NCBI GenBank assembly: GCA_046563655.1
Contig: CM102287.1
Location: 9,920,001 to 9,984,000, forward strand
Length of the DNA: 64,000 bases
From: Yuukianura sp. NJ FZ-2021
Taxonomy: Eukaryota
Reading direction: 5' to 3'
A model generated the notes under the pieces. It was not told the origin of the DNA and ran no database searches. It saw only the letters and a program-made list of their open reading frames with translations. Below are positions 7,319 to 37,900 of the stretch, in pieces; positions within the stretch are counted from its first letter, which is position 1; each line of letters starts with the position of its first letter. Made by a program: the position numbers and the translations under genes.

Positions 7319-7878
7319 ATGAGTGAAAGAACAGCGAGATTTATGCGGGTAAGTTCAAATCGCTGATTTAGTTACATTGTTGTTAATTATAGTAATTAAT
7401 TAAATTAAAACTAATTTAAACTTAGAATAATTCAAACGTAATTGAAATTGGCAGTTGTTTGCTGAGAGACCGTTGGGTGCTGCAGTGGAGCTGGAGCTGC
7501 GTGACTCCAGTCAGCGTCCCGCTGGAATCGAGAATCCGTTTGTGATCACAACACTGATCGCTGGAGTGGGCGGAGTCACGCTCACAATCATCATAATGCT
7601 CAGCATCTGGATTCTGAGGAAAGCAGCAGTCAGAGGTCAAAGGTCAAGGTCAACTGAAAGGTCGGCAGAGGAAGGACAACGTCACACTGTCACAAACACA
7701 CAAACTCAAATTTCAAAATGTGCTGACCCTGCTGACCTTCCAAGAGCGTCAAATCAGTCACAACTTCCAAAATGGCCTAAAGAAACTCCAGGTAAAACAC
7801 GATTTTCAAAAATCTGTCCAAAGATTTTCAAAAATTCCAAACTAAAGTTTCTGAAAAATCTCTCTTTTTACAGTTTAA
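7319..7878 (+). CDS. Small single-pass membrane protein, unknown family
   Basis: Exons 7319-7348, 7455-7791, 7874-7878 (GT..AG, in frame); TM segment FVITTLIAGVGGVTLTIIIMLSIWIL followed by RK. Confidence 0.55.
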
Positions 7879-8073
7879 ACCAACTAACCAGTTGAATTTG
7901 GAGAACAATGCAAAATCCAAAAGCCCGAGTTTATAAATTTTGGAATTTTAGTTTCAAACTTTAGTTCTATTTTTAATATTTATTAAAAATTGATTGATAA
8001 GTTTAGTTAATAAATATAAGGAACGTTGTTAACAAACTTTATCAAAAAATCTTAAAATTTCGAAATTTTGGTT

Positions 8074-8682: not shown

Positions 8683-10570
8683 TTAGACTTTGAGGGATTT
8701 AGGATCGAGTAAAATTTCAGCGGTGTCGGTTGCTTGTGCTTGTGCTAACGCTGCTGCAGCAGCTAAGCGCTCTTGCTGCAGTCGCTCCAGACGCTGATTG
8801 AGCTCCATCTGGTGAGCACGGTGGGCTTGGGCCATTGACCTTGACATCTCACTCTCAAACTCATCTTCGTCGCTAGAATCTTCTGGAAGGTCAAAGGTCA
8901 AAGTCAAAGGGTCATGGGTTAATGGTTAAAAGTGAAGGGTTAATTCTGCGAGGGTCAAGGGTTAACGTACCGATGAAGTTAGGTACGGTAGACTGAGCTC
9001 GTTGAGTTGTTTGAGAAGATTGACCCGATTGACCCGTCAAGGTCACTCGTGGGGTAAAAGGCTCCACCCCTTTTTGTTGTTTAGTGTTTGTGTTACTCGT
9101 GTGCCCATTCTGGGGTACCATACTACTTCCAGCCACCACTTTAATGCTCTCAGAGGCAGTCAATTTCGAACGTCTTCAAAAAATTCAAATTCAAATTAAA
9201 AAAAAAATAATGCAAAATTTTGGAAATTTTTGGAAATTTTAGTGGTTTACCTTATCTTTGGCCATTGAAATAACCTGGGGCAGGTACATTGCATAATCTT
9301 GTACACTACGCAAGTGAGTCCCACCAAACACAAAATAGGACCAATCAGCTTCAGCTCTAAAGTTTTGAATCCTTGGACACAAAAACTCGAAAAAATTTCA
9401 AATTTTTTTCAAAATTGTTCAAAAAATTTTGCTTTCTAAAAGATTTACCTTTATCACCCAATCCAACAAACGTTATAACAGATCCCATGCACACTGAAAA
9501 AATATTTCAAAAATACACGCCTTTTGAAAAACAGTCAAATTTCGCTTAACAGGTTTCGGAGATCTCGTAGGTGCTTGGGGCATTTGAAGAGTATTGATAT
9601 TTTTCCAAATTTTTGAAACAACAAAATTTTCAAAATTTTGAACAAAATTTGAAATTTGAGCATACCTAAAACAAGGCCAATGTAGACAACGGAGTATGAC
9701 TGCTGTGATTCGAAATTTCCATCTGGTTCGCTCCCATCGAAGGACTGTGACAGAAGCTGCGAAAATGAAAACAAAAATTATCTCGAGGATAATTTCGGGA
9801 TAATTTGATCAAAATTATCCCACTTTCGATAATTTGACTTAGATTTTTTACCTTGGTTGTTTTTTGAACAAATTCAGTTTTACTGTTAGATTTTTTGAGA
9901 GAAGTTGGTGACTTTCGGCTAAGGTCAACAGACGAGTCAAAACCATCTTTACTTGCACTGTTGTACACAACCTACACAAGAATAAACATCAACTACTACA
10001 ACAAACAACTAACTTCAAGGTCAAAGGTCACGCACCAAAAAACAAAAAAGTCTTCCAAAACTTTTTTCATAATTTCGAAAACCGAAATTTCGGTTTTTAC
10101 CCAGTTCGGCCGGAACTGTGGGAACGGAGCTATAGAGACATAAGCTAAATGCGGAATCAGTTCCGCCGCTGCTCCTACTGCATTTTTCTTTTGTTTCTTC
10201 TCCTTCACACCAACTTTCTTCTTCAACATGGACGCAATCACAGCCGCCATTTTCAAATTTTAGCAAAGGTCACGAGGTCACACAAGCACAAAACTCAAAC
10301 TCAAAGGTCAAAGGTCACACCGACTTTTTACAAAAAACACAAAGACAGAGACAGAAAACAAAAACAAGAACTTTCTCTCCTCATCTCATCTTTCACTTTT
10401 TAGAAATACTGTTTTTGCAAACTTTTTTTGCGACTTTTTTTTTGCAAATTAAAAATTGCAAAGATTGAACTCACCTCTGCCAAGCTTTCTTCTCGATTGG
10501 CCTCTGCACTTTCGTTTCTTTTGCGCTCACGCTCTTTTCGCGTTCGGATGATCGCCCCTGCCAGGGCCAT
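8683..10570 (-). CDS. TMEM200-like two-TM protein with two candidate first exons
   Basis: First exon 10570-10475 or 10250-10101, then 9971-9852, 9756-9666, 9493-9449, 9371-9251, 9173-8971, 8882-8683, all in frame; core VVYIGLVLVCMGSVITFVGLGDKGFKTLELKLIGPILCLVGLTCVVYKIMQC is a TM-loop-'KLIGP'-TM hairpin resembling TMEM200-type proteins. Confidence 0.7.
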
Positions 10571-10859: not shown

Positions 10860-10879
10860 TCGGTTGCCATGGCAACCGA
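10860..10879. promoter_or_regulatory. Perfect RFX X-box palindrome
   Basis: TCGGTTGCCATGGCAACCGA, a 20-bp perfect palindrome containing the canonical X-box GTTGCCATGGCAAC, between divergent genes. Confidence 0.7.
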
Positions 10880-11312
10880 TACAATCCAAACAAAAGAGAG
10901 TTTCAAAATGTTTGCAAAAATTGGCACACATGCAAAAATAATGGATCTCCGGACTCGGACAAAACCATGCTCCACTGCTAAATTATTTACACTCCCTCAT
11001 GTCCTTGGTTCCTTGCTCCTTCATCAAAATCAAAACAAGGTTTTTCCAAAAACTTGCAAAAAACGCAAAGGATTTTGGTTTTTAGCTCTTTTTTAAAAAA
11101 AAATTGAAGTTTTTCTCAAAAAATTCTTTGGTCAGTTTAACGCCATCCATCAAATTAAAAGTGAAAAGTAGCCATGACGTCCATAGAAGAAATAAAACTT
11201 TTTTGTTATGGAATTGAAACTGAACATGCCAAAATTTCAAAAATTGGAATTTTTTTTTTTCAAAATTTTAAAATTATGTAACACTTTTAGGTTTTAGAAA
11301 AAGTGGGCAGAT

Positions 11313-14256
11313 ATGGATTCTGAATCTGCCCGAGAGAATGAAATCGGCAGCGTTCCGGTTCCTGAATCCAACGAAGTGGAAAGTGAAAGTCAGTCCAGTG
11401 AAACCAGAAACGACGAAAATTTTGGAGTTTTGGCGACAAGTGAAAATCTGGTTGATGCTGTTCAAAATGTCACTGATGTTGTTCAAAATGTCGCCAATGT
11501 CGTTCAAAATGTCGTCGATGTTATTCAAAATGTCGCAGAAGATGGAACTCAAACGCTAGCAGAAGAAGGGAATTCTGTAAAAAAAAAAAAACTTTCTGAA
11601 ATTCTTGAAGATTTTTAAATTGTTAGAAACACTTTTGCTTAAAATTTTTTAGAACACAGTCATTCCTCGGACGTTTTCGCACGACACGAATCTGAATGTC
11701 GTAGAGTGCTACGACATTTTTTGGGATGCACGCTGCGACGGTTCGTCCAAGTCGCAACTCCACTCGTTTCTGCATCAAGACGCTCCGTGTCGGTTCATCG
11801 TTCCTCCCGATCTGGAATTTCAAATCTACCTAGAAACTAATGGTAACGTACAAAAATGCTGACTTTGCTGACCTTCTGACTTTGCTGACTTTTGATCTTC
11901 TGACTTTTTCAGGTCAGCCTAGCAAGGTCGCGAGCCCTCCAGCATCGGAAGAGACAAGCATTTACTACGACGCTCTTGAGACGCAGGCCGAAGACGAGAG
12001 CGACGACGACAGTGTGTCGTACACCATTGGAGGCGGAGTTAAGCCGAGAAAGAGAAGTTGTGTGGCGGTGAGCTGGTTTCAAAATAAAATTTTATGAAAT
12101 TTTTCGAAATTTCGGAAAACCCTTTTTTTGAAATCTCAATATTGGCGACATTACCTAGTCCAGAAATGGTGCTGTTGCTGTTGTCGTAAACCAGAGAAAT
12201 ACGAAGAACCGGAAGACGACATCGATGACACTTTGTTTCTAGCGACCGACGACACCAAATCGACAACGCAAGACAAGGCCACATCTGACACCAACACAGT
12301 TTCTAAAGCGTACGTCAAAAGTCATCACAAAATATGTTAAAACGAAGTTAAAAGTTAAAATTTTGTGTTAAAAGTCGGAGCAACCGCAGACTTCGCTCAG
12401 CCAAGAGCAAAGTTTCTTCTAAAGCTGTCAACGTCGCCTCGAGAGACTTCGGCCCCGCGAAATTGCCACACGAACGACGCAAGCGCGTTCCAGAAAGACC
12501 TGACAAAAACATGAGTTTGTGGGGCGTCCTCAAACATGCAATGAGCAAAGACATTTCACGGTAAGGTCAAAAGGCAAAAGTCAAAGGCAAAAAGTCAAAA
12601 GGCAAAAGTCAAATGCAAAAAGTCAAAAGGAAAAGTTGAAGTTAAAAGTTAAAAGTCAAAAGGCAAAAAGATGAAAGGCAAAAGTTAAAAGGCACAAGTT
12701 AAAAGTCAAAAGTCAAAAGGCAAAAGTCAAAAATTAAAAGTCAAAAAGCAAAAAGGAAAAGGTCAAAATTTTGCCTTCCACGTCAAATCCTTGTGTTGTT
12801 TCTAGGAGTCCACTTCCAGTACATTTTTCTGAACCGCTGTCCATGCTGCAGCGATTGGCAGAAGACTACGAATACAGCGATTTGCTGGACAAGGCTTCCA
12901 GATCGGAGGATGCACTGGAACAACTTTGCTATGTCGCAGCGTTCACTGTCGCAAGTTATTGCAACACAGCAGTAAGTAATTCCTGGAAACTAATTTTAGA
13001 AAAGGTGAAATTTTTTAAAATTTTTACTTTTTTTTCAAAATTTCAAGATTCGAACTTACAAGCCTTTTAATCCTCTGTTGGGTGAGACGTTTGAACTGGA
13101 CCGTATGGATGACATGGGATTTAAGTACATCAGTGAACAAGGTAGGCGTGACCTCTTGACCTTTCAATTTTTCTAGAAAACGTCTTTTAAAACAAGTTTT
13201 TCAAAAAGTAAGCCACCATCCACCAACGGCTGCTACACACTGCGAAGGCGCTGCTGGCTGGATATGCTGGCAGGATTTGACAATGTACAGCAAATGGCAC
13301 ATGAATACTTGCGATTTCAATCCTACTGGAGTTGCTCACTTGACATTTACCGCCAGCGGTAAGTAAACCTTGATCTTTTGTGACCTTGACCTTTGATGAC
13401 CTTGACCTTTCGTGACCTTGAAGGTCATCACTACACTTGGAAAAAGGTGACGACTGTGGTACATAATCTAATCATGGGGAAGCTTTGGGTTGACCAAGTT
13501 GGTGACGCGGTCGTCATCAATCACATTACCGGAGATACTTGCAAGCTCCAGTTTCTACCCAACGGAAGAAAGCAGGTAACTTTTTTGACCTCCGAGGCCA
13601 TGCTGGATGCTGACCTTTGACCTTTGCAGGTCACTGGGACAGTCGCAACAAAAAGTGGACAGGTCAAGATGACAATTTCTGGAAACTGGGATGATCAGCT
13701 CACCGCAACGCCCAAACCATCAGGATATCCCCTACTTCTGTGGAAAATCAAACGCCCTGCGTACGATTTCTGCAATTCAGAGGAAAAGTGTGACCTGCTT
13801 GACCTTTCTTTTATTTAGATCTGGCTCTGACAAGTACTACTACATGACCGAATTTGCATGTCAACTGAACGAAATGGAACCGGGAATAGCTCCGACCGAC
13901 TCCCGCCTTCGTCCAGATCAGCGTCTCATGGAGAACGGTCTGTTTGATGAAGCCAACGCTGAAAAGGGGAGACTGGAAGACAAGCAGCGACGAGAAGCGA
14001 AGAAGTGGGAATCAGATGAGCCCAAAAGTGTATCGAGTAAGTTGAGCTGGACATGGAAATTTCAAAGGTCAAAGGTCACGGTTCGTCTTTTGAATTTTTA
14101 GGTAGCAGTGTCACAGTTCAGAAGAAACCATACACACCTCGATGGTTCAAAAAAGGGAAGGACGACACAACTTCTCAAGTTGGTTTCATCTATACTCAAA
14201 TGTACTGGGAACGGAAACGACAAAAGAATTGGTCAATGTGTCCTAACATTTACTAA
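11313..14256 (+). CDS. Oxysterol-binding protein family member (ORD domain, no PH domain seen)
   Basis: Multi-exon; ORD motifs [58 protein letters not shown] (split by intron 13142-13208), [39 protein letters not shown]. The N-terminal exons (11313-~12310) are less certain. Confidence 0.9.
11452..11538 (+). repeat. In-frame 21-bp coding tandem repeat (VQNVxDV x4)
   Basis: GTTCAAAATGTC...GAT/AAT units repeated with period 21 in the first exon of the OSBP-family gene. Confidence 0.8.
12562..12770 (+). repeat. Intronic degenerate ~6-7/13-bp tandem repeat (AAAGGC/AAAGTC)
   Basis: aaggtcaaaaggcaaaagtcaaaggcaaaaagtc... fills most of an OSBP intron. Confidence 0.85.
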
Positions 14257-14433
14257 ATTTTTAAAATTAATTGGAATTGTACGACTCACCAAGTTGTGGT
14301 ATGCACGTTTTTATTATAATTGAGAATATAAGCGGAAAATTTGAAGAGGCGGGAACAAGCAGCGAATGAAAGCTTACTTCAACCATTAACAAAAGATGCA
14401 TGGAGCAGGAGCACATGTGACGAAGGATGAAAC

Positions 14434-18322: not shown

Positions 18323-19396
18323 ATGGATAACTTCAAATCAGCTGAGGATGCAGCTCGGTTCTGGATGGAACAGGCCAACAATTACAAAGCGCAGTGAGTC
18401 AATTGCCTTAAAATTAAGCTAATTGTTGATTAACTAATTGAGTTCAACTAATCGTTTGCAATTCTGCGTACTGTAGATTAGAAGCCGTTAGCCGAGAATA
18501 TGCCGAATTCGTAGAGGGGTCAAAGGCCCTTGAAAACGAACTTGAACTTGACTTGCAACAGAATGTGGCCAAAAACAGGGACTTGAATGCGTGTGTGATT
18601 AAGCTCAAGAATGAAAACGAAGGACTAAGGGTAAGGAGAGGTCAAAGGTCAATGGTATTCTCAATCTCAAGTACTTGAAGGTAAATATTCTGTCGTTGTA
18701 TTTGTAGCATCGAGTAGACGTTCAGAATCAGAACGAAATTCGTCAACAGACGGAATCTTCACAAGAAACAGCCGCTCTTAGGAAGCAACTGGAGGAACTC
18801 AAACGTCAAATTCGTCAATTGGAACAAAACAACGACGACCTTGAGAAAAGAAACAGAGCTGCCCAGCAAAGTATCGATGACCTGGACACTAAAATCAACG
18901 GGATCATTGAAAGAAACGCTATTCTGGAAAGTGAGTTGGACGAAAAGGAGCAACTGAAGATTCTTGCACAACGATTTCGAGACGAAAGTAGAGGTAACGT
19001 ATACAGAACTTCTCAATTAACACAATTAATTGAGAATTTGCTAATTAACTGATTAATTGTTTGTCCTTTGCAGATCTCCGTTCCGAACTGCAGGTTATTC
19101 GACAGCAAGCTCAAACGCCAGCTCCGCAAGATTCAAATCGGACTGAAATTCAAGTGCCTCCTGCAGGTAATCAGATTCTCCAAAAAACTAACATTTTTCA
19201 GAATTTTTTGAAAAAGTTGATAACTCGTTTTCGTTTTTTCTCTTTTTTAGTTCGTGTCAGGTCAAATCCGATTTCGATTGTGAACGATCTACTAAGAAAA
19301 GTTGGAGTAATTGAGAACAAGCTGGCTGCTGCTGCCTGTCATCGCAGAGAGGATCAACCTTCCAAGAGGTTCGTCCTTTCTAACAAAAACAATTAG
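18323..19396 (+). CDS. nudE: Nuclear distribution protein NudE (NDE1/NDEL1 family)
   Basis: Five exons: EYAEFVEGSKALENELELDL, IRQLEQNNDDLEKRNR, IERNAILESELDEKEQL..QRFRDESRDLRSELQV, ISIVNDLLRKVGVIENKLA. Confidence 0.93.
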
Positions 19397-22153: not shown

Positions 22154-22944
22154 CTAACAAAAATCGACCAAAACTGTTAAAAATTCGTTTTGAAATCGTT
22201 TTCAAATTCTTGCCAACTAATCAGACCAACTGAGCTCAGCATCAACAAATTCCTCACCGTCGTGTCGCTTAGTGACGAAGTAAAGGTTCATGGACTACTG
22301 CAGCTACTTAAGTTTGTGATGCGGTAAACTTTTGTCCACCGACCTGTTGACCTGAAAAACAAAACAATAAGGAAGTTATGACTTGTTCCAGATGCTTTAG
22401 AACTTAAAACTTTAGTTGCCTGACAACAATAGTAAGTAATGAAATGGTGATTTGGTACCCTATGGAACTATTTGTTTCCTGGTCACGTCACAAGTCAGTT
22501 ATCTCGTTCCATGGTAAGCTCTACTGCTGTAAGTATGTCAGTTTAGGTACGAGGACGCCGAGTCGACTGTCTTTAGTTTATCACTATTTAATTTCCTTTT
22601 GTTTTTCTTCGTAGCTCTTCCTCCAGCAAGCAGAAGAGTCCACGACGACGATTATCAGACGACGATAGCAGACTTTCGTTTAGGTATGACTTCTTAGAGA
22701 GGATTAGTATGTTCCGCACCAAGGACTTCCAGAATGCGACTTAGAGAAGCTACAACATGAAGAGAAAGGAATCAGTCAATGTCAATGTGTCACTTATTTC
22801 TGAGAATTGGTCACGGGAGAGAGTATTACCTTGAGTAAATTCCTAAGTTAATTAGTAATTGATCGATCCATCTGCTGAGATGTTTACCTGAGATAATGGC
22901 AGGAGTTAAACTTTTACACCTGGAAGTGGAGCTCTGGAACTCTC

Positions 22945-22985
22945 AGCCAATCAGAGAGCTCCATTTTCAAATCTGGAGGCGGGAA
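22945..22985. promoter_or_regulatory. CCAAT box plus E2F-like site in the ZDHHC/POFUT1 divergent promoter
   Basis: AGCCAATCAG at 22945 and GGCGGGAA at 22978, between head-to-head genes. Confidence 0.5.
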
Positions 22986-23206
22986 CCTGTTTGTTGTGCT
23001 TTTTCCACTGTCAGCTGATCTGTCAACGGTCATCATCCGGCTTTCTGGAATTCGGGGTCAACGAAGGTCACAACGGTAAGATAAGTTACTTCGATTATCT
23101 AATTTCAATTAATTGATTAACGATAACGTACTTGTACCGTTTTTGTATCCAGGAAAACATCCACAGATCCGACACATTCAGAAAACCGGAAAGTTATCAG
23201 GGTGCG

Positions 23207-24873
23207 ATGGAATCTGGAATAAAGATTTCCATTACTTTCTGGATACTGCTTTTTAGTGACCGGGTGACAGCGACGACAACGACATCAAATCGATCTGCTG
23301 ACGTGCCCCTTGACCCCAATGGATACGTTGCTTACTGTCCTTGTATGGGTAAGTCAAAATTTCAATTCTACGAATTCCAAAATCCAAATACTTTAACATG
23401 AAGCCTTCAGTAAAAAACGATTTTTAACGATTTTTTTAAAATCTTGATTTAGGTAGATTTGGTAATCAAGCGGACCAATTTCTTGGGGCGTTGGCTTTTG
23501 CTAAGAAGGTCAATCGAACGCTGATACTGCCACCATGGGTTGAATATATTCCGTACAAAGCTGGCTCGGTAAGATTCAGTACTTCCTTTGCTAAACATAA
23601 TTTTTGTTTCGATGTCAGAAGCTAATTTTTTTGTAAAATGTTTAACTTCAAACTTATTTTTCAGCTCCAAATTCCATTTGACACGTACTTTGTACCGGAA
23701 GCTGTGGAGAAATTCCACAGGGCAATCACAATGGAACGATTCATGCAGCAGTTGGCACCCAAGATCTGGCCACCGGAAAAACGAATCTGTAAGATTAGTT
23801 GCGTTTCAAGACAATCCAGAATTTTAAATGTTTTTCTTTTATGTCCACAGCATTTTGCTATGCTGAGAGAGCGAAAGGAAAAGGATGTGATGCCAAAGAT
23901 GGCAATCCATTTGGACCATTTTGGGACAATTTTAACGTAAGATTCTCAATTTTTTAGATTTTGTGCAATTCTTGACTAACTTTTAACGAAAACAGATTGA
24001 CTTTGTGGGTTCTGAGCTGTTTGGACCGGATCTGCATTACACAACGTGGATCAACGGAGCAAGCTGGGCAAAGTATGACGGAAGTAGTTGGCCAGGTAAG
24101 GTCACATTTCATATCCAGACTTCAGCTATTAAATCTAGAGTTAGTCCAAGTTAATTAAATGTTACGATTGATTGATTGATTTGATTTTACCAGTGTTGGC
24201 ATTTGTCGGACCTCCAAGTTTGTTTCCAGTAGAAGAAGGCAACGTTCACCTACAAGAATTTTTAGTCTGGAACGACGTAATTGAAACCAAAGCTAACGAT
24301 TTCATCCGAACGTTACCGAAAGGACGATTTGTAGGAATTCATCTTCGAAACGGAGTGGATTGGGTAATCTCTTAGCGATTTCTAGATAAAAAACTTGCCA
24401 CTGCCAGTGTACTGATCCAGTTTTTTCAAATTTTTCAGACACGAGCATGTGAACACCTCGAACTTGGAAGTTCTCTGTTCGCTTCTCCACAATGCACCGG
24501 ATATCACAACGAACATGGTCCCCTCACACACGAATCTTGCCTTCCCTCACTTCCAACGATCTTGAATCAGTTAAAAAGAGCTGTGAAGTCCATCAATGCA
24601 ACGTCGATATTCGTCGCCTCGGACAACAACCACCTCATTTCAGAAATCTCACGAACATTTAGTCCCGAAGGGATCACTGCTCACTCTCTACAGTATGCTT
24701 CCCCCCATGTGGATCTCGCCATTCTTGCAAAATCCAATCTCTTCATTGGAAACTGTGTCAGTAGCTTCTCGGCTTTCGTCAAGAGAGACAGAGACATCAA
24801 GGGATTTCCATCCCAATTCTGGGGCTTCGAACCAAAACAAAAATCAAGTATCCCGGATCATCAAGAGCTCTGA
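23207..24873 (+). CDS. POFUT1: GDP-fucose protein O-fucosyltransferase 1
   Basis: Signal peptide; [98 protein letters not shown]-terminal ER-retention-like HQEL*. Confidence 0.96.
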
Positions 24874-25135
24874 TATCGAAGATAATATCGGAGGGTAATG
24901 ATATCGAAGATACTGATATGGAAAGATCGAAGAAGCTCTAAAAGTATTTCAACTTCCTTCAACTCTGTACTCTGTACGACAAAATACTTAACGAATCTCT
25001 CACTTGAGACAGTATATTTTAAGCTTTAGATCTCAAGAAACTTATGTTGTAATTGTTATATGAAATGAATTTAAATAAATTAACTGAATTAACTTAACTA
25101 ATTATTGGTTACAATACGCTGTATTTACGTTTAGT

Positions 25136-25427
25136 TCATTTGGCCAGGGCAAGTAACGTTTGGAGTCCAGTGTCGGGCCACTTTTGTTCCGGTTGTTTCG
25201 TAGTGAGTGCCGGAACTTGTTCTGAGTCTGGTTCCGGTAAATCAGTTACCGGAAGATCCGCCTAGAAAGGAGATTAATGAACAACAATAACATGAATTAA
25301 TTAATACGTTCGATTAATTGATTGACTTTAAGCAGAAACCCACCTCTCCGGGCGGTAACATGTCACCTCTCCATCGGTTATCGATGATATTCCCTCGATA
25401 CCAATCCAGCTTAATTTGCGAATCCAT
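25136..25427 (-). CDS. ANAPC13: Anaphase-promoting complex subunit 13
   Basis: Exons 25427-25344 and 25261-25136: MDSQIKLDWYRGNIIDNRWRGDMLPPGE|ADLPVTDLPEPDSEQVPALTTKQPEQKWPDTGLQTLLALAK*, matching the APC13 pattern MDS...IDxxWRxDxLP...LPEP...ExKWxDxxLQ. Missed by the ORF track. Confidence 0.85.
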
Positions 25428-25813
25428 TTTCTCAGAAGACTGTTATGTAATCGATTAATTAATTAAGTACACGTTAGATTATCTAATTCTAAGGCTTTAG
25501 ATAAAACTGGGATATAACGGTAAACGTTAACTAAATTCTTATCTCCGCATCAGCTGATTTACAAAAGTTAAAGATAAGAATAAAAACAAGTGGGAAAATA
25601 ACAGTGGTTTTTCGTAGTATCTTGAGGAATTTGAAAAACGAAGGCGGTTTTTCGCCACGTGCAATTTTTTAGCAATTGACAGCTGAAAATTCAATATTTT
25701 TAATTAACTTTATAAGTAATTCAGCGTTGCGAAAATTAAATTTTGGTAATTCAATTATTAGTAAATTGGAACTGGAGCTTAATACGTAAACAGCTAATTA
25801 AGAAGTAAGAACT

Positions 25814-25823
25814 AGCCAATCAG
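25814..25823. promoter_or_regulatory. CCAAT box in the ANAPC13/THADA divergent promoter
   Basis: AGCCAATCAG about 90 bp upstream of the THADA ATG; same 10-mer as at 22945. Confidence 0.5.
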
Positions 25824-25911
25824 AGATCAGCTGTTCTGGTTTTGCCTACTGCTGCTGCCGGTGCTGGTCTCATAAAGTATTTTCGTCTAGCATTTCTAGC
25901 AAACAATCGCA

Positions 25912-28900
25912 ATGCCGTCGACCAGAACGATTAAATTTGAGTATTCTGCAGCATTACCAATGTCACAGTTGGATTCATCTCAGCCACTATTTAACGAAGG
26001 AGCATTCAAATCTAGGTGAGAAGGTCAAAAGGTCAAATTAGTTAACACAATACACAACTACGTCGGACGTACGAACAGCGAGCTTCGCCAACCTGTCGCA
26101 ATTTTAACATTTTGGGTACAATTTGATGAACAAATTTGTATTCGGTTGTTTTGTTTTACAGACTAAAAAAACTGGAGCCATCTTCAACTGAAGAATGCAC
26201 CGACCTCCGTCACTTCATAACATCCGAACTTAGGTCGACGCTGACAGCGACCACACCAAGGACATTAGTCAGCGTCAACAACAGCGTTGCCATGTTCAAA
26301 ATCGCTTTTGACTTTCACATTCCAAAAACCAAGACGCTGATCGCTGCCGATGGAGATTCTCACTCGGATCCATTCTTTGCCCTTATTCTGGAACCGATTC
26401 TACCCGAAATCGTTTCGTTCTGGACCAATCATGTCCTGTCCTATTGTCACCTCGGTGCTCAACAACTAGTTGACATAGTAGCTGATTCCCAAGCAACTTC
26501 CAGTCATCAGCTGATCTGTCTCATCCACAGAGCACTAAGAACTTTGCTGTGGCTGCTCAAGCGGATGCTGGATACTGGCAATACTTTCCTTCCTTTGAAG
26601 CATCAGCTGACTCATCTACAAACATCTTTCGTAGGACTCATGAATTTAGCACATCTAGAACTTCCGCTAGACGTCAAGTGTAACTTAGCACTCGGAATTT
26701 GCTACATTTTTAAAATAGTCGACAATCACCGTGTTCCAGATTTACTGAAAACAGCATTTTCAGCAGCATCTTTTGTGGGTGACTCGCCAGTGAACCAACT
26801 TGCATTTGCCTTTGGAATTCTCAGCATTTCTTCTACCGATCCTGCCCAAGATGTCACTTTCGAAACCAGGATGGTCCAAATTGCTCAATTTCTGTTTACA
26901 ATTGACCATGGGTGAGACATTTCTGAAAATTTTAGAAATTCACGCTGAAATTTTCAAATTTTGAAATTAATTTTTTTGCCTTACTTTTATGTAGGTCCAA
27001 AGAAGCTCTGAATCTTGGTACTGGAAGAGTACTGGAACTGTGGATGGAGAAACTAGTTCAAAGCGAAACCGTTCCGACTAAATCTCTGAAAAATCTGTTT
27101 CCAGACATTGAATTCTTCATTTTCAGTTACCTTCCAGGCCACATTGATGCTGTCAAATGCTGTTGTCGGAATATTCTCAAAGGGCTGACGAAAATCTACG
27201 ACCGGATGGAATCTGCCGATGGATCGCCCCAGATCCGGCCTCTTCTGGAACGAATTTTGGTCAAACCGGAACATGTGAAGTGGATTTCCGTGTGGTGTGT
27301 GGCTATAACTACCCGGAAATCGCTGGAACTCCTGAAAATCAACGCCAAAACGCCTCAGGCTCTACTAAGAAGTCAGAGAACCATGAAGAATCCAGTAAGA
27401 CATTTTCAAAAATTTAGGAATTTTCGAAATTTTTGATTTTTTTTTGAAATTCCAGGCCAGTGATGTTTACTTGACACTGATGGAACACCATCTTCCAGAA
27501 GTAAGTGCAGAAGACTTCGGAGTGACCTGGATCGCCCCTCTTTTTAACACCCAACTTCAGTTGAGTCCAAACGAAACGAATTGGCCTCAAAAACGATCCA
27601 TCATTCGCTCAATCCTAAAAGCGGGAAATTCAAAAATCATTCAACTCGTCATGGATTTTGTAATTCGAAAAATGAAACTTGCAGCGACAGAATCCATTTG
27701 TACCGAATCCACTCTTCTGGCAGTCGAAGCAATCAAATTAGCCACGGAACTTAAAATTGATCTGCCTTTGGCAGTCAACGATGCTGACCAAGATGCTGAT
27801 GCTGCCAAGTATTTTCGTGGACTCGTTCCGCGTGAAGTTCTACACACATGGGCTACCAGCAGCAGAATGCAAATCCGACTCGCCTGTTTCAGTTTACTAA
27901 TCGAAACGAAACGAACAACTGAGGTCATTTCGGCTCCAGATTTCGAATCGATCAAAATTTTACTCAAGTATAACATTGTCAGTCAAAATCCTGCTTTTCG
28001 TCAACAGTTTTTCTCGTATTATAAGAGGGTAAGTTGAAATCAAAATTTTGAAAAACTTTCAAAATTTTAAAAGTTTTTTTTTTTGACTAGCTCGTGAGAA
28101 GACTGCGAGACAGCGTAACTGTACTGCAAAGGACCAAAGATTTGCAGAATTTGGAAAATTACGAAAACTTCTTCCGTTGGCTCTGGAATTTTTTGACAAA
28201 AGATGAAGGAATGTTCCCTGGAGCCAATTTCGGACGACGCTGCCAATCGCTGGAATTCATTTCAGAACTGCTGGAGAAATTTGAGCTGGAAACGCTGAAA
28301 ATTCAGCGTCCTTCAAACGAAGATGTTTCTTACCTACGCTGGATTTTCGACACTTACGAGTACAACAAGAAACTGATGTTTCCAATTCTACTAAAACTTT
28401 ACCAAAATCCGTTAGAGGTAGGCAAAAATTTCAAAAGTTCTAAATTTTTAAGAAACTATTAAAAAAAAGTTATCCAAACTTTTTTTTATCTTAGGATAAA
28501 GATCTTGGGATAAGGATACTGGAAACAGCGTTTCGTCTCTGCGAAAGCGTTCATCCACCGGACACAGTCACTGGAAGATACTTGGCTCTTTTCTTGATTC
28601 AACATCGATCCCACGGTGCACCGTGGATAACCGCTGCCAAAATGCTGGAAACCGTTTTGACTCGACTAGTTTCCATCAAAAATGATATTGTGGAAACTTC
28701 TTTGATTGAAGTTGCTTCCAGAACTCAGATGTACGGCTATCTACGATTGATTCGATCGCTGTTTACCGAAGATTCTTCCATCAGTTCCTGTCAAAATATG
28801 GAACCTTATCGACCAATCGCTGTTGAACTTCTTAAATTGTGTTTGGAGATCAACGAACTACTGCTTCCAGTGCTAGGCGACGCTGCTCCAGAGGGGTTCT

Positions 28901-31900
28901 TGCCTGGTAAGTTTCGACTTTCAATGTGGATCCAGGTTTTGAACAATTTTGAATTCGTGCGATTTCATGTGAAATTTAAGAATCGAAGCATTTGAAGTTG
29001 AGATTACACGGATTTTTCACTTTTTCAAGAATTTCAAGAAACACGAATTTTTCACTTTTTCAAGAACTTTAAACAACTCTGAAAATTTTTTTCCGAAGAG
29101 CTACTGCCGCCTCGGGCTTACACCAAAATGTTGCCACGAATGGTGGGATCACGTTTTGGTGGGTTTCATTGGGGCGTTCATGTGAAATTCAAAAACAGGA
29201 CCATTTGAAGTTGAAATTAACATGAATTTTTTAAAAAATTAAAAATCTAACTTCGCAAATTTTTTTCTTAGGTCTTCCTGACTCTGACCCTCGAAATTCG
29301 CGCGTCGTGCGTTCAATCAACGCCCAGCGTCTTTTGGTGTGTTCGTGGCGTTCAATGCGTGACATTTGCATGCTGCTGACTGAAATGCTGGAAGTATTTC
29401 CAACACAAGGAGAGCGGGATCAGTTCGTTTTTAATGTTGAAGAAGTGGAGATGATCGGAGATCACTTGCTCTTTCTCCTCAAGAACGTCATGCACCGTGG
29501 CGTTTTTGAACAAGTTTTTACTGGATTCAAGCACTTGGCGTACCGTCTGTTCAAATCCACTTGTGGCAAATTGAATGCTCTGCCGCTGAAATGGTTGAAT
29601 GACGCCTTTGATCAAGAACTAATTAGCACCAAGTGCTTTACTCGCAGGAGTGCTGGTCTCCCATTCATTTTTAAAGTAACCAAAACTTCAAAATTTCAAA
29701 AGAATTTCAAAATTTTGGTTTTTGAGTAAAATTTTTCAATTTTTGTTTGAATTTTAGGCTCTCTTGTCTCCAATGCGTCTGAACGAACCGTTCATAGCAA
29801 AACACGTTGATAAAATTTTTGAAACTTATGAAAATGCAGCGATTTCCAGCGATTCCAGTTACGTTCGGATTCACTGTACAAATGTGCTGCGTGGGTTGTT
29901 CAAAGACGCTGATTTTTCGCGTGTGATGATGCCATATGTACCTAAAGGACTCAAATTAGTTTTTGATCAATTGAAATCTCACAACTGGAATGTAAGTAAA
30001 ATGTTAGATTTTTGAACTTTTTGGAATTTTTTGGAAAAAACTATGATTTTGTCATTTGCTGTTTCTTTTTAGGAATGCAATGCTGGGCTAATGTTATATG
30101 GATCGATTATTCGAAGAACATTTGGACCTGAATTGAACCTAATGACGGCTCCAACGTTCTTTAGAAGATTTCCAGAAATGTATGAATTTCTACTGGAACT
30201 GGTCCGGAGTTGCGCAGAAGCGGTGACCTTTGACCTCAAACTGCAGCAAAAACAGTATCGACCGGCAGATGACTTTACTTATCAAGTTTTACTTTTGTTG
30301 TCAGCGTTTGCTGTGACTGGAGTCGTGGAATATGGACCGCTGAAGGTAAAAAGTGTGACATTATACCTGGAAAATTTCGAAATTTTGTAAAATTTCAATT
30401 TTTTTTGTTGCTTTTTTGGTAAATTTTTAGATTTCTGAATTCGTTGAACCAATTCGAACTTGTGCTGCCAGTGCGGACTACCAAGTGAGAGAAATGGCAG
30501 CGAAAGCACTGAAACCATTTTTGATTCAAAACAGTTCCAAAGTGGATCTCATTTTGAAAATTTTGGAAGAATATGCTGGACGCCATTTTAAAAAAAGCTC
30601 GAACGCTATTCATGGAGATTTTCTACAAGTGAGTTTGTTCTGCGGTTTCGAACGTCTTTTCGAATTTTGTTAAAATTTTCAATTTTTCAAAATTTTATTT
30701 TTTCCAGATTTTACAAATTTTGAAAAGTCTGCCCCAAGAAGAACCGAAACAAAAAATAATTGATGCTTTTCGATCCACTTTTACAATCCAAAGTCCGTTG
30801 TGGGAATGCGTATGTCCGACGGTATACGAATCTTTAGCTGAGATTTGTCTCTACTTTGGACCAACTTTGAAATCCGTCCACACCAATCTTCAACATTTTT
30901 ATGCCGTGACCTTTGACCTTGACCTCTCCGTGACCTTTGACCTCAAGGTCAGTCGCTGCTCATTCCCAGGCCTGGCAAATGCTGATGATGTTCTCGCTCA
31001 AGCAGAAGTTGAATTTACTCTGCACGAATCTAATGCTGAAGAAGTGATTTATGATTGGGTGAATTCCAGACCGTGGGAATTTTTAGTCCAACTGTTCAGT
31101 GTTCTCTGTTCAAAAAAATACTTGGACAGCTCAAATCCAGAAGTACTGGTGATATTTGATGCTGCCGTGAGAAGATACTTGCAAGAACAGTTTCAGTATC
31201 CAGCACAAATGGTTGCGGAGGAAGCAGTGTTGGAGTTTTTGGCCAGGGGAGATTCAAATATCTACGAAGTTTGGAGTCAAGTGAAAATCGCTGAAAATTC
31301 AGCGATTACGAAGCATTTGCTGCAAAAAGTTTTGGAAATTTGTCAATCTGAGGTTGGCACGATGGAATGCAAAGCTCGAGCGCTGATTGTGCTTGGGAAA
31401 TTGTCGTTCCAGACAAACCAAACGCTGCTTACTTCAGTAAGACTAAAAAATTTTGATGTTGTTGGTTGTGGATGAGCTTTAAATTGTAACTTTCAAAATT
31501 TGTGATTTTTAAAATTTAGAATTTTTTTTGAAATTTAGACCGAAACGGGAGCCTTGTGTGAAATTTTGAGTACTTTGTGTGACTCCAGTTATGACTTGGA
31601 TCTGAGACTGGGTGTAGCAAAATCGCTTCCGTCGCTGCCGTTTACCCAAATTCAAAATTTTACCGGTACGAAAATACTTTTTTATGAAAAAAGTTGGGAG
31701 TTCCATCTTATCTGTGTGTTAATTTTGAAATTTGACTTTAGTTTTGGAACAATCTAAAATTTGGTATGCCGTTTTGACGCTGATGCTGGATGACGAAGGA
31801 GCAGTACGAAATGAAATCAATGCGAAACTGGGAGAAGACGATTCAGAATTTTCTGAAAGTTTAGAACCTTCTGAAGGCGGCAAAAGTCGATTTTGTGAGA

Positions 31901-32451
31901 GAAAATCTTGCGAATTGATCGTACGCCAATTTCTGACCGATTTTGGTACAAATCACACCGTGGATGCTCTCGTTCTCATTGTTGGCCTCACTCTACGAGA
32001 TGACTATGAAGTACAAGTTACTGGACCTGATGATGTAAGTTTTAAAAAAAAAGTTTTCAAAATTTTGAATTTCAAAATTTTGGTAATTTTGACTTTGCAG
32101 TGTGACGAAGAACATCTTTTCGAAAAAAGCGAAATGAACGCCTATGCTGAACCACTTTTGCTGGCCAAAGTCCTGCATCACGAACTCCAATCGCTTCCAG
32201 CGCTTCAAGCATCTTTCCAGCGTCATTTCCAAACCACAATACTAAACGCTGACCAAGTGAAACTGTTCCGGTTTGCATCCAATTCCGTTTCAGACAATTC
32301 CGAGGAATCGCTAACCCTCTGTGATCTGGCTTCTTCCAGTGTTTCAGTGGAAGAAGGGCCCCCCTTTTCCTCTGAATTCGGGAATTTGTGTGACAGAAGC
32401 CAAGTGCAGTCCCATATTTTAGAATTCCTTTGTTCCTTTCTGGAGTGTTAA
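25912..32451 (+). CDS. THADA: THADA / Trm732 homologue (DUF2428, HEAT-like)
   Basis: Multi-exon; motifs MFPGANFGRR, LLVCSWRSMRDI, MHRGVFEQ, FTRRSAGLPF, IHCTNVLRGLFKD, FFRRFPEMYEFLL, VREMAAKAL, NAIHGDFLQ, LFEKSEMNAYAEP. Confidence 0.9.
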
Positions 32452-32619
32452 GAGGTCAATTAAGAGTAATTGTCACTTAAGCGCCTGTCACAACCATTTC
32501 AGTCAGCAGTTGTGCAAAGTATTAAAAGTCTCCAGGGAAAGAGAAAGGGAGAATTTTAATTTTGGATTCTCTAACTAACTTTGAAAGAAGGAAATAATCG
32601 TAAACAGAAAAAAGAGGGG

Positions 32620-32685
32620 GGAAGGGGAATCGAACCCGCGGAAACTAAAAACTCAATGGCCTCGGAGTGTACTGAATGAGCAAAA
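32620..32685 (-). other. Degenerate tRNA-like (Pol III B-box) element
   Basis: Reverse strand ...GCGGGTTCGATTCCCC; weak A box; no clean cloverleaf. Confidence 0.3.
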
Positions 32686-32809
32686 AACGGAGAAAAGTCA
32701 AAGAATGGAAATAAACGGAACAAAAAGTTAATTAAAGAATTTTCTGGAGGGGTCATAATTTTTGGGTTGGTGTTTTTCGTAAAATAACTCCATTCCAACT
32801 TCTCTCCTC

Positions 32810-33345
32810 TCATATAGTTACTCCCTCCACTTTTCCCGCTCTTTTTCTCTTTCATAGTTGCTCCTCTCTCACCTCTCTCATTTTTCTCATAGTTACTCCC
32901 TCCACTTTTGAAATTTCTCATAGTTACTCCCTCCACTTTTCCCGCTCTTTTTCTCTTTCATAGTTACTCCCTCCACTTTTGATTTTTCTCATAGTTACTC
33001 CCTCCACTCTTTTCAGCCTACTAGTTACTCCCTCTACCCAGTGTTGCCGGATGGATAAAATATTTCTTCCACCTACATCAAGTTAGGTGGAAGTATCCAT
33101 TTATATCCAGCCATTTCTTCCGGATAAAACCGGATGAAATATACTGGATATCCAGTGGACGAAATGTCAAAAAAGTGGATATCCAGCAACACTTCCTCTA
33201 CTCAATCCAACCTTTCTCATAGTTACTCCCTGCACCTCTCTTATTTCTCTCATAGTTACTCCCTCTGTCTCAGTTTTTCCCGCTCTTTTCTGTCTCCCGT
33301 CGTTACTCCCGCTCTTTTCTCGGTCTGATAGTTACTCCCTCCACT
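32810..33345 (+). repeat. Array of CATAGTTACTCCCTCCACT-based degenerate repeats (~10 copies)
   Basis: Motif recurs at ~30-45-bp spacing; the reverse complement GGAGGGAGTAACTA also occurs x4 at 41498-41603 and at 57421, and the forward form at 62018. Confidence 0.85.
33039..33194. mobile_element. hAT-type MITE (156 bp)
   Basis: TIRs CAGTGTTGC...GCAACACT(T); 8-bp flanks CCTCTACC / CCTCTACT form a TSD with one mismatch; the element interrupts the repeat array. Confidence 0.75.
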
Positions 33346-34499
33346 TGGCATGGCTCATTCCACTGAAATGGGTGAAAGTAAAAGTCAGAAGTTAGTTGAT
33401 CGGGAATATTGGAGGGGCTATGACAAATGAGCACTTAGCGTCAACTCCATATTCGTCCTATTTTTTCATTTCCGTCAATAGGAGCCCATTGTTTCCAACC
33501 CATTTAACCATTATTACCAATATCTCTCTCCCCTCTTATTCATTTCCCTACTTTCCGAAAAACGTGTGTTTTCTCAAAATTTTGAAAATGCTTAGGAGAA
33601 AGCATTTTTTAGAAGAAAGCTGGGAGGAAGATGATGATGGAGGGGAAGCGATACATGGGGAGACCTTAACTGCAGGGACAGTGACAAAGTGCGACTCTAA
33701 ATATTCTTCTACCTCACAGATCCACTGAACTACTTTCTCCAGCTACTTTCTCCAGGAAAGTAAAAAACTAATGTAAAAAAGTCTAACCTAACGAAAAAAG
33801 TCAAGTCGAGAGTCAGTCAAGCAAAAACTAAAAAATTATGGAACTAAAAAGCTCCAGCCCAACCTTCTCTTGCCATTTTTCCTGCTTTAAAAAATTTCTA
33901 GACAGTTTCCGATTTAAAAAACTGGATTTTTTAGAAAAGGGCAACAAATTTATAACTCTACATTTTTTAATCAATATTGTCCTTTTTTTTATGTACAGAT
34001 CTATAAACAAGGTCAAAGGTCAATTTTTGCAAAATTTTGAAAAGCTGCAGAACAAACCTCCAGGCTTTGACATTAGCCTGAAGGATTAACTTTTTTTTAA
34101 ACTTTTTTTTTCTAAATTAAGCTTCCTTTTTAAGTTCTTTTTGAAGTTTTGGCATATAAAGACAAAGAAAATTCTAAAATTCTTTTTTTCGTTTTCATTT
34201 TTCCTCAAAAACTTTCCTTTTCATCTAAAAACTGCCTGACTTTTTAATTTTAAGCAAGTACGAAATTAAGGCACATTTTCTCTCTCATCTCCTCATAACA
34301 ATTTCTATGGTTTAAAAAAGTTGGGGAATGGACTTTTTAGGAAATCTTTAATCGGAGTTGCTAAAAACCGGAATGACCTTTGACCTTTTGCTCCAGAGGT
34401 CAATCGTGCATAAAAAGAAGTTGAGTTGGACGCATGCGTAGAATGGGAGGGAAAACGACCGTGTTGCGGATGGTTTCGTAAGGAGGGTTGTCGGTATCA

Positions 34500-34900
34500 C
34501 TCGGGAAATTTCGTGATTTCGTGATTCTGGACTTTCTGGATACTAAAAAACTCACGAATCACGTGAAGTCTATCAACGGGAAATCGTTTTCACTCGGGTA
34601 AAATCGTGATGCTTCGGGAAATCACTCATGTAAATCGTGATGCTTCGGGAAATCACTGATATCAGTTCGTGATGCGTCGGGAAATCACATGTGTAAATCG
34701 TGACGTTTCGCGAAATCACACATGTGATTCGTGATGTTTCGGGAAATCACTCATGTCAGCTCGTAATTCCTGGGAAAATCACTCTTAAATTCGAGATTCT
34801 TCTGGATTTTTGAAATTTGAATTCGTGATGCTTGGGAAAATCAGTTGAATTCGTGATTCCTAATGATTCTACTCGTTTAAATTCGTGATTCTTCGGGACT
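34500..34900. repeat. ~30-bp degenerate minisatellite (TCGTGATGCTTCGGGAAATCAC) just downstream of the LRR gene stop
   Basis: Units at ~34603, 34635, 34666, 34698, 34728 and others, each with an internal inverted GTGAT...ATCAC. Confidence 0.8.
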
Positions 34901-34930
34901 CCGACTTCCAGTGGAGCCCGCCTGGTCATA

Positions 34931-37900
34931 TCATAATCTCTCCAGCTCCGTAGTCGTCGTCAGAGACGGATGAAGCCCCGTTTCTGTCGCAAGTGAGTAG
35001 TGACGATACGTCAAGAAGTCTGGACTCATGTGAGTAGGTGGAGTCGTGCCGTTGCCGTTTCTGTGCGGAGTGTAGGACTGATGATGATGATGATGATTGT
35101 TGTGGGACTGATGATATCCACCCAGTGTCCCCACATTGTTCGTCTCCTGAATCACATCACCCACTCGGTGGTCAATCTTCCCATTCTGAAATCACAACAA
35201 AGGCGTCACGAAATCAAAATTCAATAGAACCAAAACTGATTTGTCCACAAGATGGTCGTAACTTTCTCAAAAAACCGAATTTTTTCAAAACGCCTGCTTT
35301 TTTCATCCTACCTGTTGTTGTCTGAACCGTCTTCTTTTTCTGACTTTGACACAAGCGAGAGTCGTGACGAAAATAACAAAAACAACTAAGCCCACGACTG
35401 CTCCCACCAGCACGCCCATCCGACGGTGTAAAATTGACACTTTCTCGCTCTCGTCTTCGCCCAGCGTCCGAATCTGACAAAAAACAACAAAATTGACATT
35501 TGGAAGAAAAAAAATAGTTTTTTTGCAACTTTTTTTTTTTTTGAAAAAACTGACCTGAGCACATTTTGAAAGCGGAGAATCTCGAAGAAGCGATGATGCT
35601 GGTCGTGTTGTCAACGCAGTTAAGACGCTGGAGTTGTTGACTTCGTGATGTGACAGACCAAGGACACAGACCAAGTAGGGCGTGTCCGGCTCAAGGTCAG
35701 GGAGCAAGTAGAATCGTGATGTGGCCGGAAGGGGGCGTGTCCGCACGATGTCGTTGTGATTCAAAGCGTGAAATGCTATGACATAACCTTGCATTCCGGA
35801 ATTGTTGCGACCTTGCCAAGAAACTACTGCAGAAGACGGTCTCACATCCTGCAACATTAAAAAAAAATTTAGAAATCCAAAATTTTAAATCTCCAAATTC
35901 TCAAGTTTCAAGATTCTTTGAAATTTCAGGGTATTTGAGTTTCTAATTTCTAGATTTTTGCACTACTGCATGAGTTCTGGTGGGGAAAAAAAAACTTTTT
36001 CTCTGATTTTTTTCTGTCTAAATTTTAGTGAAAGTTGAGATTAGAAAACAACATTTTTTTTAAAAATCTGCGCACGTTTTGGTGAAACATTTTGACAAGA
36101 CTGTTGAGAAGCGTTGTTGAAGCACGTAAAAAGTGTGTTGGATGGAGAGGTTCCAGCTTCAAGTTGAACGCTGAAAAATTAATGATCATCAAAATGATTT
36201 CACTCTTCCGCTTTTTGTTTCATCGGAACAGCAACTGAGAAGTTGGAGAAAGTCTCTCCACACTCCAGGATTTCTTCCGACATCACGAGAACTAAAAAAA
36301 AATTTCTGAAATTTTTTTTTCAGAAAACACATTTTGTGAAACTCTGTTACAACTCTAACGTTTCCCCCAGAGAAAAAGAAAGCATCCGTTTCCTGTATCT
36401 TCTCACCAAGGGGTCGCTCATTAATTAGACAATTCACAACACACCACCATCAATCTCCTCTTCCTCTTCATTTTAACTTTTCTAAAAAATCCACTTCAAC
36501 ACAATTTCAATTTCCTTTTTCAAAAAAAAAATATAGATTTTTTCAAAAACTAACTTTTGTCTTCTGCCTACTTTTCAACTTTCTCCAATTATTTCTAAAA
36601 CACTCAGTTTTTCTTCTCTCTTTTTTCTTTCTCTCTTAGCTCCTCCCCTTTTTTAAATTTTGGTTCTTCACTTTTTACTTTGGTGAAAGTTGAAACTTGA
36701 AAATTCAAATATTGGCGCGTAAAAAATCAATATGGAGAAAGTTTAGAGCGGTTGAAGGGAACTGTTGATGAGAAGTAAAAAAGAAAGGAGACGAGGGTTG
36801 AAGAGGTCGTTAATTCTGATGATGACTTTCACTTGCCACGGAGCATCTTCACTCCTTTCACTAACCTAACCATAGCCTAATGTTAGCCTAACGTTAACCT
36901 AACCATAGCCTAACCAAATCCTAACTTCCTGGAAGAAGTCCTAACGGAGTATCTCAACATTAAAACTTTGGGAGTTAAAATTTGCATGGAAAGTTGAGTC
37001 ATTTCAAGTGTAGTTTCACTTGCATTTTGTAAAAGAAAAGTCAAATTTCTCTCTTTTTCCTCAAAACTTGGCTTTTGATATCCTCTACATTCCTAGTCCA
37101 CACTTAATTAACGCTCATAAATCATGTTTTCAGAAATTAGGACAGATTTTGAGAAGAAAAAATTTTGGGAATAAAAATGATGCTATGGAGTTGATGACAG
37201 GAGACTTTTGATGACCAAAGTTTACAACTTGTGACGAGGAGAAAGTTAAAACTTTGCTAGTTGGAGAGAAAAACTCTCATTAAGCTCCTCACTTTCATCC
37301 ATTTAATACCGTAACTTCTCTCTAACGAAGTTTTCAAAAAAAAAAACGGGAGTTTTTTTGATCATGGTAGGGATTTGGTCTACAGAAATTTAACACAGAA
37401 ATGGTTTAGAGAAGGGTGGCAATGGTTACCTGAATAGCGAGTTTGACAATTGCTGGCATCGAGCACAGTGTTGGCAAATCCGCATCCAGAATGAGGCGGC
37501 CACGACGCTCCTCGGGTCTTTCGCAGTGAAAATTCGGCACGCCCGGCCCAGCTACCGAAGTTGCAAAAACTTTCGGATGGGCTGACAACCACTCCCAGAA
37601 GTCCTTGCTTTCACAGTCACAGCTCAGTGGATTCTCTACAAACAACAAAACACAAAGGTCAAAGGTCAATGACCTCAAAAGGTCAAAGGTCAAATTTTCG
37701 AAGGTCAAGTTAGAAAAAGAATCACCGGGCGAAGAAGATCAACTTTTAGATTTCAATTGAACCCAGTTCAGTTTCTTTTCTAGAAAATCCTGTGCCATGT
37801 TAAGACCTAAAAAAAGCGCGGGAAAGTCTTAGAATTTGAAAGTGGGCGGGAGAGACAAATGGGATTTAAGCACTTGGAATGATGAGACGGACTTTGGGCT

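Follow-up and report, generated by a model that had tools for sequence, protein, structure and literature searches.

Competent bacteria are well known to have genomes saturated with short exact words, but such words have, to our knowledge, hardly been described in animals. According to passages of the paper by Findlay and Redfield (2009, PMC2817400), uptake sequences (uptake signal sequences, USS, and DNA uptake sequences, DUS) in Haemophilus and Neisseria genes are exact oligomers that lie at poorly conserved residues and in poorly conserved genes, and that raise the frequency of the peptides they encode. Excerpts of two further papers describe the amplification of HNF4alpha sites by Alu (PMC3252374) and introners, which are intron-generating transposons (Gozashti et al. 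2022, PMC9860276). Here we analyse a 64,000-nt stretch of the genome of Yuukianura sp. NJ FZ-2021 (assembly GCA_046563655.1, contig CM102287.1, positions 9,920,001 to 9,984,000; hereafter the window), in which a 13-nt word, TGACCTTTGACCT, recurs in exact form and is read three times as the peptide VTFDL in open frames of a THADA (Trm732-type) gene. As judged from the sequence, there is about an even chance that the exact 13-14-nt word TGACCTTTGACCTY forms a genome-wide family of which the three THADA copies are passengers translated in frame.

The 13-mer is a perfect nuclear-receptor DR1, that is, a direct repeat of two AGGTCA half sites with a 1-nt spacer. The window is eukaryotic, with a G+C content of ~39% and short introns, and contains 19 exact and 6 one-mismatch copies of the word, giving 25 matches where 0.16 were expected; none of 100 shuffled windows reached 25 matches at up to one mismatch. 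The over-representation is ~100-fold and concerns both strands (8 exact copies on the plus and 11 on the minus strand), and single half sites, TGACCT or AGGTCA, numbered 136 compared to 30.2 ± 5.9 expected. At 0, 1, 2 and 3 mismatches (Hamming distance) the 13-mer was counted 19, 6, 8 and 51 times, against simulated values of 0, 0.05, 2.8 and 22, and exact copies are three times as numerous as one-mismatch copies (19:6). The base following the exact 13-mer is Y (C or T) in 19/19 cases, and comparison of the flanks of the 19 exact copies revealed no similarity between copies beyond the half-site cluster. Perfect DR1 copies occur at a density of 1 per 3.4 kb, and all but one of the 19 are found within the first 38 kb, which are rich in genes (P = 0.0007, or 0.0018 with two close pairs counted once).

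Since a DR1 comprises two units of the 7-mer TGACCTT, the word resembles a (TGACCTT)n microsatellite. However, half sites on the same strand are spaced by 7 nt in 19 pairs and by 14 nt in none, so that the word always has two units and never three, and is not an ordinary heptamer microsatellite. A simple (TGACCTT)n array was ruled out, as a third unit is present in 0/19 exact copies and the copy number in the window is fixed at two. Among metagenome contigs, two DR1 copies within 30 nt of each other were found at at least 120 loci, many of which are (TGACCTT)n of unrelated, often G+C-rich organisms.

Read from the sequence, the word contains TGA in two of its sense frames and encodes TFDL in the remaining one, while all three frames of the antisense strand are open. 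The three VTFDL peptides of THADA are written with identical codons. Under the codon usage of the locus, the chance of VTFDL being written as GTGACCTTTGACCTY is 0.0054, and for all three it is 1.6e-7; the peptide itself is expected 0.002 times in a protein of 1750 residues. Given the identical codons and the presence of the same word in non-coding DNA on both strands, VTFDL has its cause at the DNA level, as a by-product of the word. The threefold occurrence of VTFDL in one protein could be taken as a sign that the peptide was selected for THADA function, but the shared codons and the non-coding copies speak against this, as does the absence of VTFDL from homologues at the first site (see below). 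Chance is opposed by the shuffled windows, none of which equalled the observed count, and an assembly artefact by the contigs of two independent studies, which contain this DNA. Peptide selection, chance and artefact together are thus extremely improbable as explanations.

The host gene was identified from colinear open reading frames (ORFs) that match the Pfam families TPR_Trm732, DUF2428 and TPR_Trm732_C (E = 7.5e-12, 1.2e-30 and 3e-09, respectively). Residues 111-1783 of THADA from the springtail Orchesella cincta (P0003), the closest named homologue, cover 26364-32445 in order in a tblastn alignment; identity is 54% in one conserved exon and ranges from 24 to 51% outside it. The original prediction, made from the sequence alone, had placed the motif at 30223 and at 30906-30951 in open THADA frames read as VTFDL, and this is borne out by the sequence, the ORFs, Pfam and homology: the frames holding the motif (30073-30387 and 30633-31472) are THADA exons by the latter two. 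The flanks of all three copies provide a clean coding context by codon-usage score and are free of stops.

The first copy (site 1) sits in a loop, 13-26 residues long, that is flanked by the blocks FFRxFPxMYxFLL and DFTYxVLLLLS. Five homologues (P0001-P0005), obtained from among 1.84 billion representatives searched, can be aligned on either side of it; the conserved blocks are invariant, and VTFDL at this site is absent from all five. The loop has 18 residues in the window and 16 in a homologue fragment of 66% identity, which differs in sequence and has no VTFDL.

The other two copies (site 2) belong to a composite in which a DR1 is followed by a half site placed as a direct repeat without spacer (DR0), 5 nt, a second DR1, 2 nt and an inverted half site. 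With starts separated by 24 nt, the two DR1 copies are read in one and the same frame. The exon aligned with P0003 by BLASTP (E = 2e-13) and was colinear on both sides of the motif, with a 9-residue gap in O. cincta opposite VTFDLDLSV. A search for homologues of the exon (30708-31472; longer, near and shorter lengths) gave none at E ≤ 0.001, and the distant O. cincta protein is the only one alignable to it, so that the variability of site 2 is judged from this one sequence. As for the proposed check of whether VTFDL is lineage-specific among THADA orthologues, lineage specificity is supported by five homologues at site 1 and by a single gap in one distant homologue at site 2. An AlphaFold model of the exon, built from a two-row alignment, had a mean predicted local distance difference test (pLDDT) score of 42.8, and the coil it places at residues 70-91 is not usable. 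Among the matches listed for contigs aligned to 20001-40000, there was no insertion or deletion at 30224 or 30906-30951; the listed pieces of a second organism lie outside these sites.

Of the other 16 exact copies, which lie outside THADA, one falls in a further likely exon, three fall in inferred introns, and for 12 no coding frame has support; the motif family is mostly non-coding. The original prediction gave too little weight to this point and to the short introns nearby that the family fills. Its reading of the copy at 7634 as RGQRSRS proved correct: an antisense DR1 with a DR0 half site lies in a 149-residue frame, and this is the sole exact copy outside THADA that has both stop-free flanks scoring as coding and a frame reading through the motif. 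No Pfam family matched the gene at ~7320-7885. Two imperfect coding copies had also been proposed. Near 4600, a two-mismatch copy with a second half site, read as KVT/EVT, is indeed present, but the ORF (4238-4843, minus strand) assigned to MRPS27 matches the end of the MRP-S27 profile below threshold (E = 0.041). Near 8127, a one-mismatch copy was found in a stop-free frame of 115 residues, although this frame has no gene support.

Intronic copies occur in the neighbouring OSBP gene, the exons of which follow the Oxysterol_BP profile and the human OSBP1 chain 7v62_A in order. It has five inferred introns of 54-67 nt, and half sites are present in 5/5 of them, compared to 0/9 of the listed THADA introns (two further introns were not delimited). 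The copy at 13611 has stop-free flanks that score as coding, yet its own sequence introduces a TGA into the frame, and it falls within an inferred intron. On the minus strand, the copies at 8888 and 37656/37680 lie 5, 20 and 44 nt upstream of junctions between AG and an open frame. From its sequence context, the copy at 8888 is probably the 3' end of an intron; Pfam gave no support for the exons adjoining 8888 and 37656. Half-site clusters are also found near gene 5' ends (26022, 23055 and 49516), with others in introns, exons and 3' intergenic DNA. The principal features are collected in Table 1.

Table 1. THADA, its two sites and selected copies of the word elsewhere in the window (a slash marks a splice junction; DR0, DR1 and DR2 are direct repeats with spacers of 0, 1 and 2 nt).
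Feature	Position	Strand	Remarks
THADA (Trm732-type) gene	26130..32448	+	At least 12 exons; Pfam and tblastn
THADA exon with site 1	30073..30345	+	Inferred borders TTTTTAG/GAA and AAG/GTAAAA; TPR_Trm732_C matches residues 3-81
Site 1, GTGACCTTTGACCTC	30223..30237	+	Read V-T-F-D-L in the context AEAVTFDLKLQ
THADA exon with site 2	30708..31436	+	Open frame; poorly conserved, 24% identity to O. cincta; inferred borders
Site 2 composite, GTGACCTTTGACCTTGACCTCTCCGTGACCTTTGACCTCAAGGTCA, 46 nt	30906..30951	+	Reads VTFDLDLSVTFDLKVS; wider frame YAVTFDLDLSVTFDLKVS
DR2 pair, AGGTCAaaAGGTCA	26022..26035	-	~100 nt upstream of the first long THADA open frame
Antisense DR1 and DR0 half site	7634..7652	-	Read RGQRSRS; exon 2 of a small two-intron gene (~7320-7885, +), right after a hydrophobic segment
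DR1, sense for minus-strand reading	8888..8900	-	Followed by TCCAG, then an acidic coiled-coil-like open frame
OSBP intron, 65 nt	13359..13423	+	Nearly all TGACCT half sites; 3' splice site TGACCTTGAAG/GTCA; Tandem Repeats Finder (TRF) period 16 x 3.4
Sense DR1	13611..13623	+	In OSBP intron 13576-13629, 6 nt from its 3' splice site (TGACCTTTGACCTTTGCAG/GTCA)
Antisense DR1	14066..14078	-	Middle of OSBP intron 14037-14101
Antisense DR1	18639..18651	-	9 nt into NUDE intron 18631-18707; NUDE_C Pfam match in the next exon
Composite DR1-N11-DR1 and inverted half site	37656..37692	-	20 nt upstream of TTTGTAG/ and an NPLSCDC... open frame

Two side observations concern the OSBP gene. At 13788-13818 there is a possible 31-nt intron, GTGTGACCTGCTTGACCTTTCTTTTATTTAG; the alternative is a 58-nt intron from 13761 on, and the frame is preserved in either case. 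The Pfam spacing is ambiguous, and a search of the PDB with the OSBP exon 13621-13818 gave no match. The stretch immediately before the OSBP domain exons (12566-12768) holds ~26 degenerate GTCAAAA units, which resemble the unit AGGTCAA of the antisense motif and lie in open frames rich in Lys, Ser and Gln.

The intronic copies bear directly on how site 2 is read, as the segment 30906-30947 (42 nt) runs from GT to AG and might be spliced out as a micro-intron, as the original prediction itself had considered, or as an alternatively spliced exitron built from the motif, in which case VTFDL would be missing from some or all of the THADA protein. The same might hold for 30223-30246 (24 nt) at site 1, which likewise begins with GT and finishes with AG. 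The motif holds TTGAC or CTGAC, which resemble the branch-point consensus, together with pyrimidines, and the arrangement at site 2, GCC/GTGACC ... TGACCTTTGACCTCAAG/GTCAGT, matches the ends of the OSBP introns (TGACCTTGAAG/GTCA and TGACCTTTGACCTTTGCAG/GTCA), with further probable intron-end cases at 8888 and 37656 and with the OSBP half-site content given above. On the other hand, both segments are shorter than all of the 19 inferred introns at the locus (54-104 nt and one of 365 nt, the minimum being 54 nt), and the donor gcc/GTGACC, lacking -1G and +5G, is weaker than every inferred donor. Both segments are multiples of three in length and stop-free in frame, and the probability that three sense copies are all open is 1/27 by chance if their placement is unconstrained, with the caveat that open frames are what attracted attention to them in the original prediction. 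Without its segment, site 1 would retain a loop of 10 residues, shorter than in all five homologues. Longer introns ending at 30947 were considered and rejected: a 72-nt option has the donor GTCCAC and would remove 24 residues, and a 101-nt option breaks the frame. Splicing at site 2 is thus disfavoured and quite unlikely, but is to be taken seriously; at site 1 it is less plausible still. The likeness to a branch point and pyrimidine tract may explain the sense copies at intron 3' ends, but not the antisense or intergenic ones.

With the three THADA copies read as translated passengers of the family, each would have arisen by an event at the DNA level, in which the motif unit was either inserted or locally duplicated, and would have persisted because it fell in a variable inter-helix loop with an open frame and a length that is a multiple of three. 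Support for a family extending beyond the window comes from the composite at 37656-37692, which matched more than 20 contigs in each of four runs (three from a single sample, the fourth from a different study); the matching contigs then diverge into unlike sequence on both sides, which suggests a genome-wide DR1 family.

Several points weigh against this explanation. The loop at site 1 is just 2 residues longer than that of the nearest homologue, and so leaves no clean insertion footprint. Target-site duplications, terminal repeats or longer shared sequence around the copies were not seen by eye, in the course of which no systematic search for target-site duplications was made. The OSBP introns show that a DR1, a short spacer and AG/GTCA make a real-looking 3' intron end, so site 2 could be spliced. 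The density and perfection of the DR1 copies are unlike those of ordinary transcription-factor sites. Finally, all motif statistics come from one 64-kb window, and the summed contig depths are sums over contigs and not copy numbers, one of the samples possibly being the source of the assembly itself.

The form of the word invites a different explanation, in which the copies are selected sites for a nuclear-receptor-type dimer, with an enhancer or architectural role, and the exonic ones arose in place where loops allowed, without spread by insertion. The word is an idealised DR1 of the kind used as a receptor-binding oligonucleotide, and candidate dimers that bind DR1 presumably include those of the HNF4, RXR/USP, COUP-TF/Svp and TR2/4 types. 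Its strict pairing of half sites and the dominance of exact over near copies are in keeping with such a role, as is the grouping of additional half sites in DR0, DR2 and everted layouts: clusters show a polarity, with direct repeats followed by an inverted half site, and half-site pairs within 60 nt are convergent in 32 cases and divergent in 5. DR1 copies are spaced by 24 nt twice in the window and by 22-23 nt in many contigs, and the concentration in the gene-dense 38 kb includes some copies near gene 5' ends. Yet density and perfection differ from those of known receptor cistromes, and copies are also present in 3' intergenic DNA and in mid-intron. In addition, point mutation in place, with no templated process behind it, is improbable as the origin of three exact 13-mers in a single gene. 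Judged from the sequence features, selected receptor sites as the whole explanation are possible but doubtful. A receptor-type protein could nevertheless be part of the passenger explanation: the two-half-site form, the excess of exact copies and the 22-24 nt spacing of DR1 copies would point to recognition of the word by a putative dimeric nuclear-receptor-type protein, which would be the simplest explanation of the first two features and could constrain the word or take part in its spread.

The claim that the DNA motif imposes peptide sequence in tolerant regions agrees with the identical codons, the 16 other exact copies and the variable loop at site 1, but the strong selection or drive inferred from it goes beyond these observations. 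Insertion or duplication with passive tolerance may fit as well as selection or drive. In its strongest form, the idea would be that an animal genome keeps an exact DR1 word at ~1 copy per 3-4 kb by DNA-level drive that overwrites tolerant coding loops and builds short introns. The candidate processes would be templated insertion, or biased repair or conversion, tied to the putative sequence-specific dimeric binding protein. We consider this unlikely; if true, the DR1 drive would be a eukaryotic counterpart of bacterial uptake-sequence dynamics. We know of no uptake or drive machinery in animals that is comparable to the bacterial one.

The analogy with uptake sequences drawn by the original prediction is apt as far as pattern is concerned. 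Like the USS and DUS described in passages of PMC2817400, the window has an exact oligomer far above chance on both strands, and also in coding sequence at poorly conserved residues. The differences are that the organism is a eukaryote, that most copies are non-coding, and that the word is a direct repeat of the protein-dimer type; the four likely exonic copies in the window are too few for an estimate of frame or codon bias. With receptor DR1 elements amplified by repeats, of which excerpts of PMC3252374 give the HNF4alpha example, it shares the canonical AGGTCA-n-AGGTCA form and many copies per genome. In contrast to the Alu-carried sites, the copies here have no visible transposon as carrier, they are found in exons and make up the greater part of short introns, and binding is putative. 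The resemblance to introners, as portrayed in passages of PMC9860276, lies in a repeated short element found in short introns and at splice-site ends. However, similarity between the DR1 copies is limited to 13-14 nt, no terminal repeats or target duplications were seen, and the THADA copies appear unspliced. The searched passages of that paper make no mention of springtails or non-copepod arthropods.

Mobile DNA was also considered in the form of miniature inverted-repeat transposable elements (MITEs). MITE terminal repeats were ruled out for the window, where the sole convergent pair of full motifs (13611/14066) encloses a Pfam-supported OSBP exon. A second group among the listed metagenome matches (L037, L054, L062, L065, L101, L104 and others) is a MITE-like element, found in a few metagenome assemblies, which has inverted ends (gagcccacctg ... 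caggtgggctc) and, internally, a block of half sites of the DR1 type; it also carries a (GACA)n-like tract. Over its interior, GTGACCTTTGACCTTGACCCATGTGACCTTTGACCTCGAGGTCA, the element shares 87-89% identity with THADA 30905-30951, a match picked from 120 loci preselected for two DR1 copies. The element, which comes from a different organism, shows conserved flanks as well as inverted ends, whereas the half-site block is all that the window shares with it. The likeness can be taken as a sign, from sequence comparison, that half-site blocks can ride on mobile DNA, and no more.

Papers that contain the 13-mer are, by their titles and the openings of their abstracts, mostly on nuclear receptors. 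No literature on this word as a dispersed repeat, or on such a repeat in springtails, was found, and journals and supplements beyond those searched may hold such a report. Within these sources, the DR1 word itself is textbook material, and its behaviour as a dispersed repeat is without a full match among Alu-amplified receptor sites, uptake sequences and introners. If the whole genome behaves like the window, it would provide a tractable case of a DNA-level process, be it insertion, biased repair or binding-site selection, that shapes protein sequence, intron content and possibly the nuclear-receptor binding landscape. As the same word is exon in THADA and intron body or splice-site context in OSBP, gene predictors and readers working without homology will misjudge it unless RNA data are available.

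Other repeats were observed around THADA. A second dispersed word, an A/T palindrome around CAAAATTTTGAAA, has 38 matches at up to one mismatch compared to 2.5 expected. Examples across the window are 1122-1137, 28041-28072, 29705-29717, 32055-32082 and 34027-34042. The word is abundant in THADA introns, has a near-copy in THADA exon 9 (30553-30565), and in two cases abuts a DR1 copy (1146 and 34010). The segments 28672-29338 and 32674-33340, one within the 365-nt THADA intron and one just past the THADA 3' end, are high-copy repeats without the DR1 word, with depths summed over contigs of 8,700-14,400 compared to a few hundred nearby.

Elsewhere in the window, a tandem array of a 35-nt unit (46967-47844; 25 copies, 96% identity) lies between two leucine-rich repeat (LRR) genes and contains several open frames with spurious Pfam matches. 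A tRNA-Ser(GGA) gene was found at 51182-51251 by both ARAGORN and Rfam (31.9 bits), and a weaker tRNA-like match at 58553-58608 by Rfam only (30 bits). At 36865-36925 there is a short array of the 11-mer CCTAACCATAG, which contains CCTAA, a unit that we take to be arthropod telomere-like.

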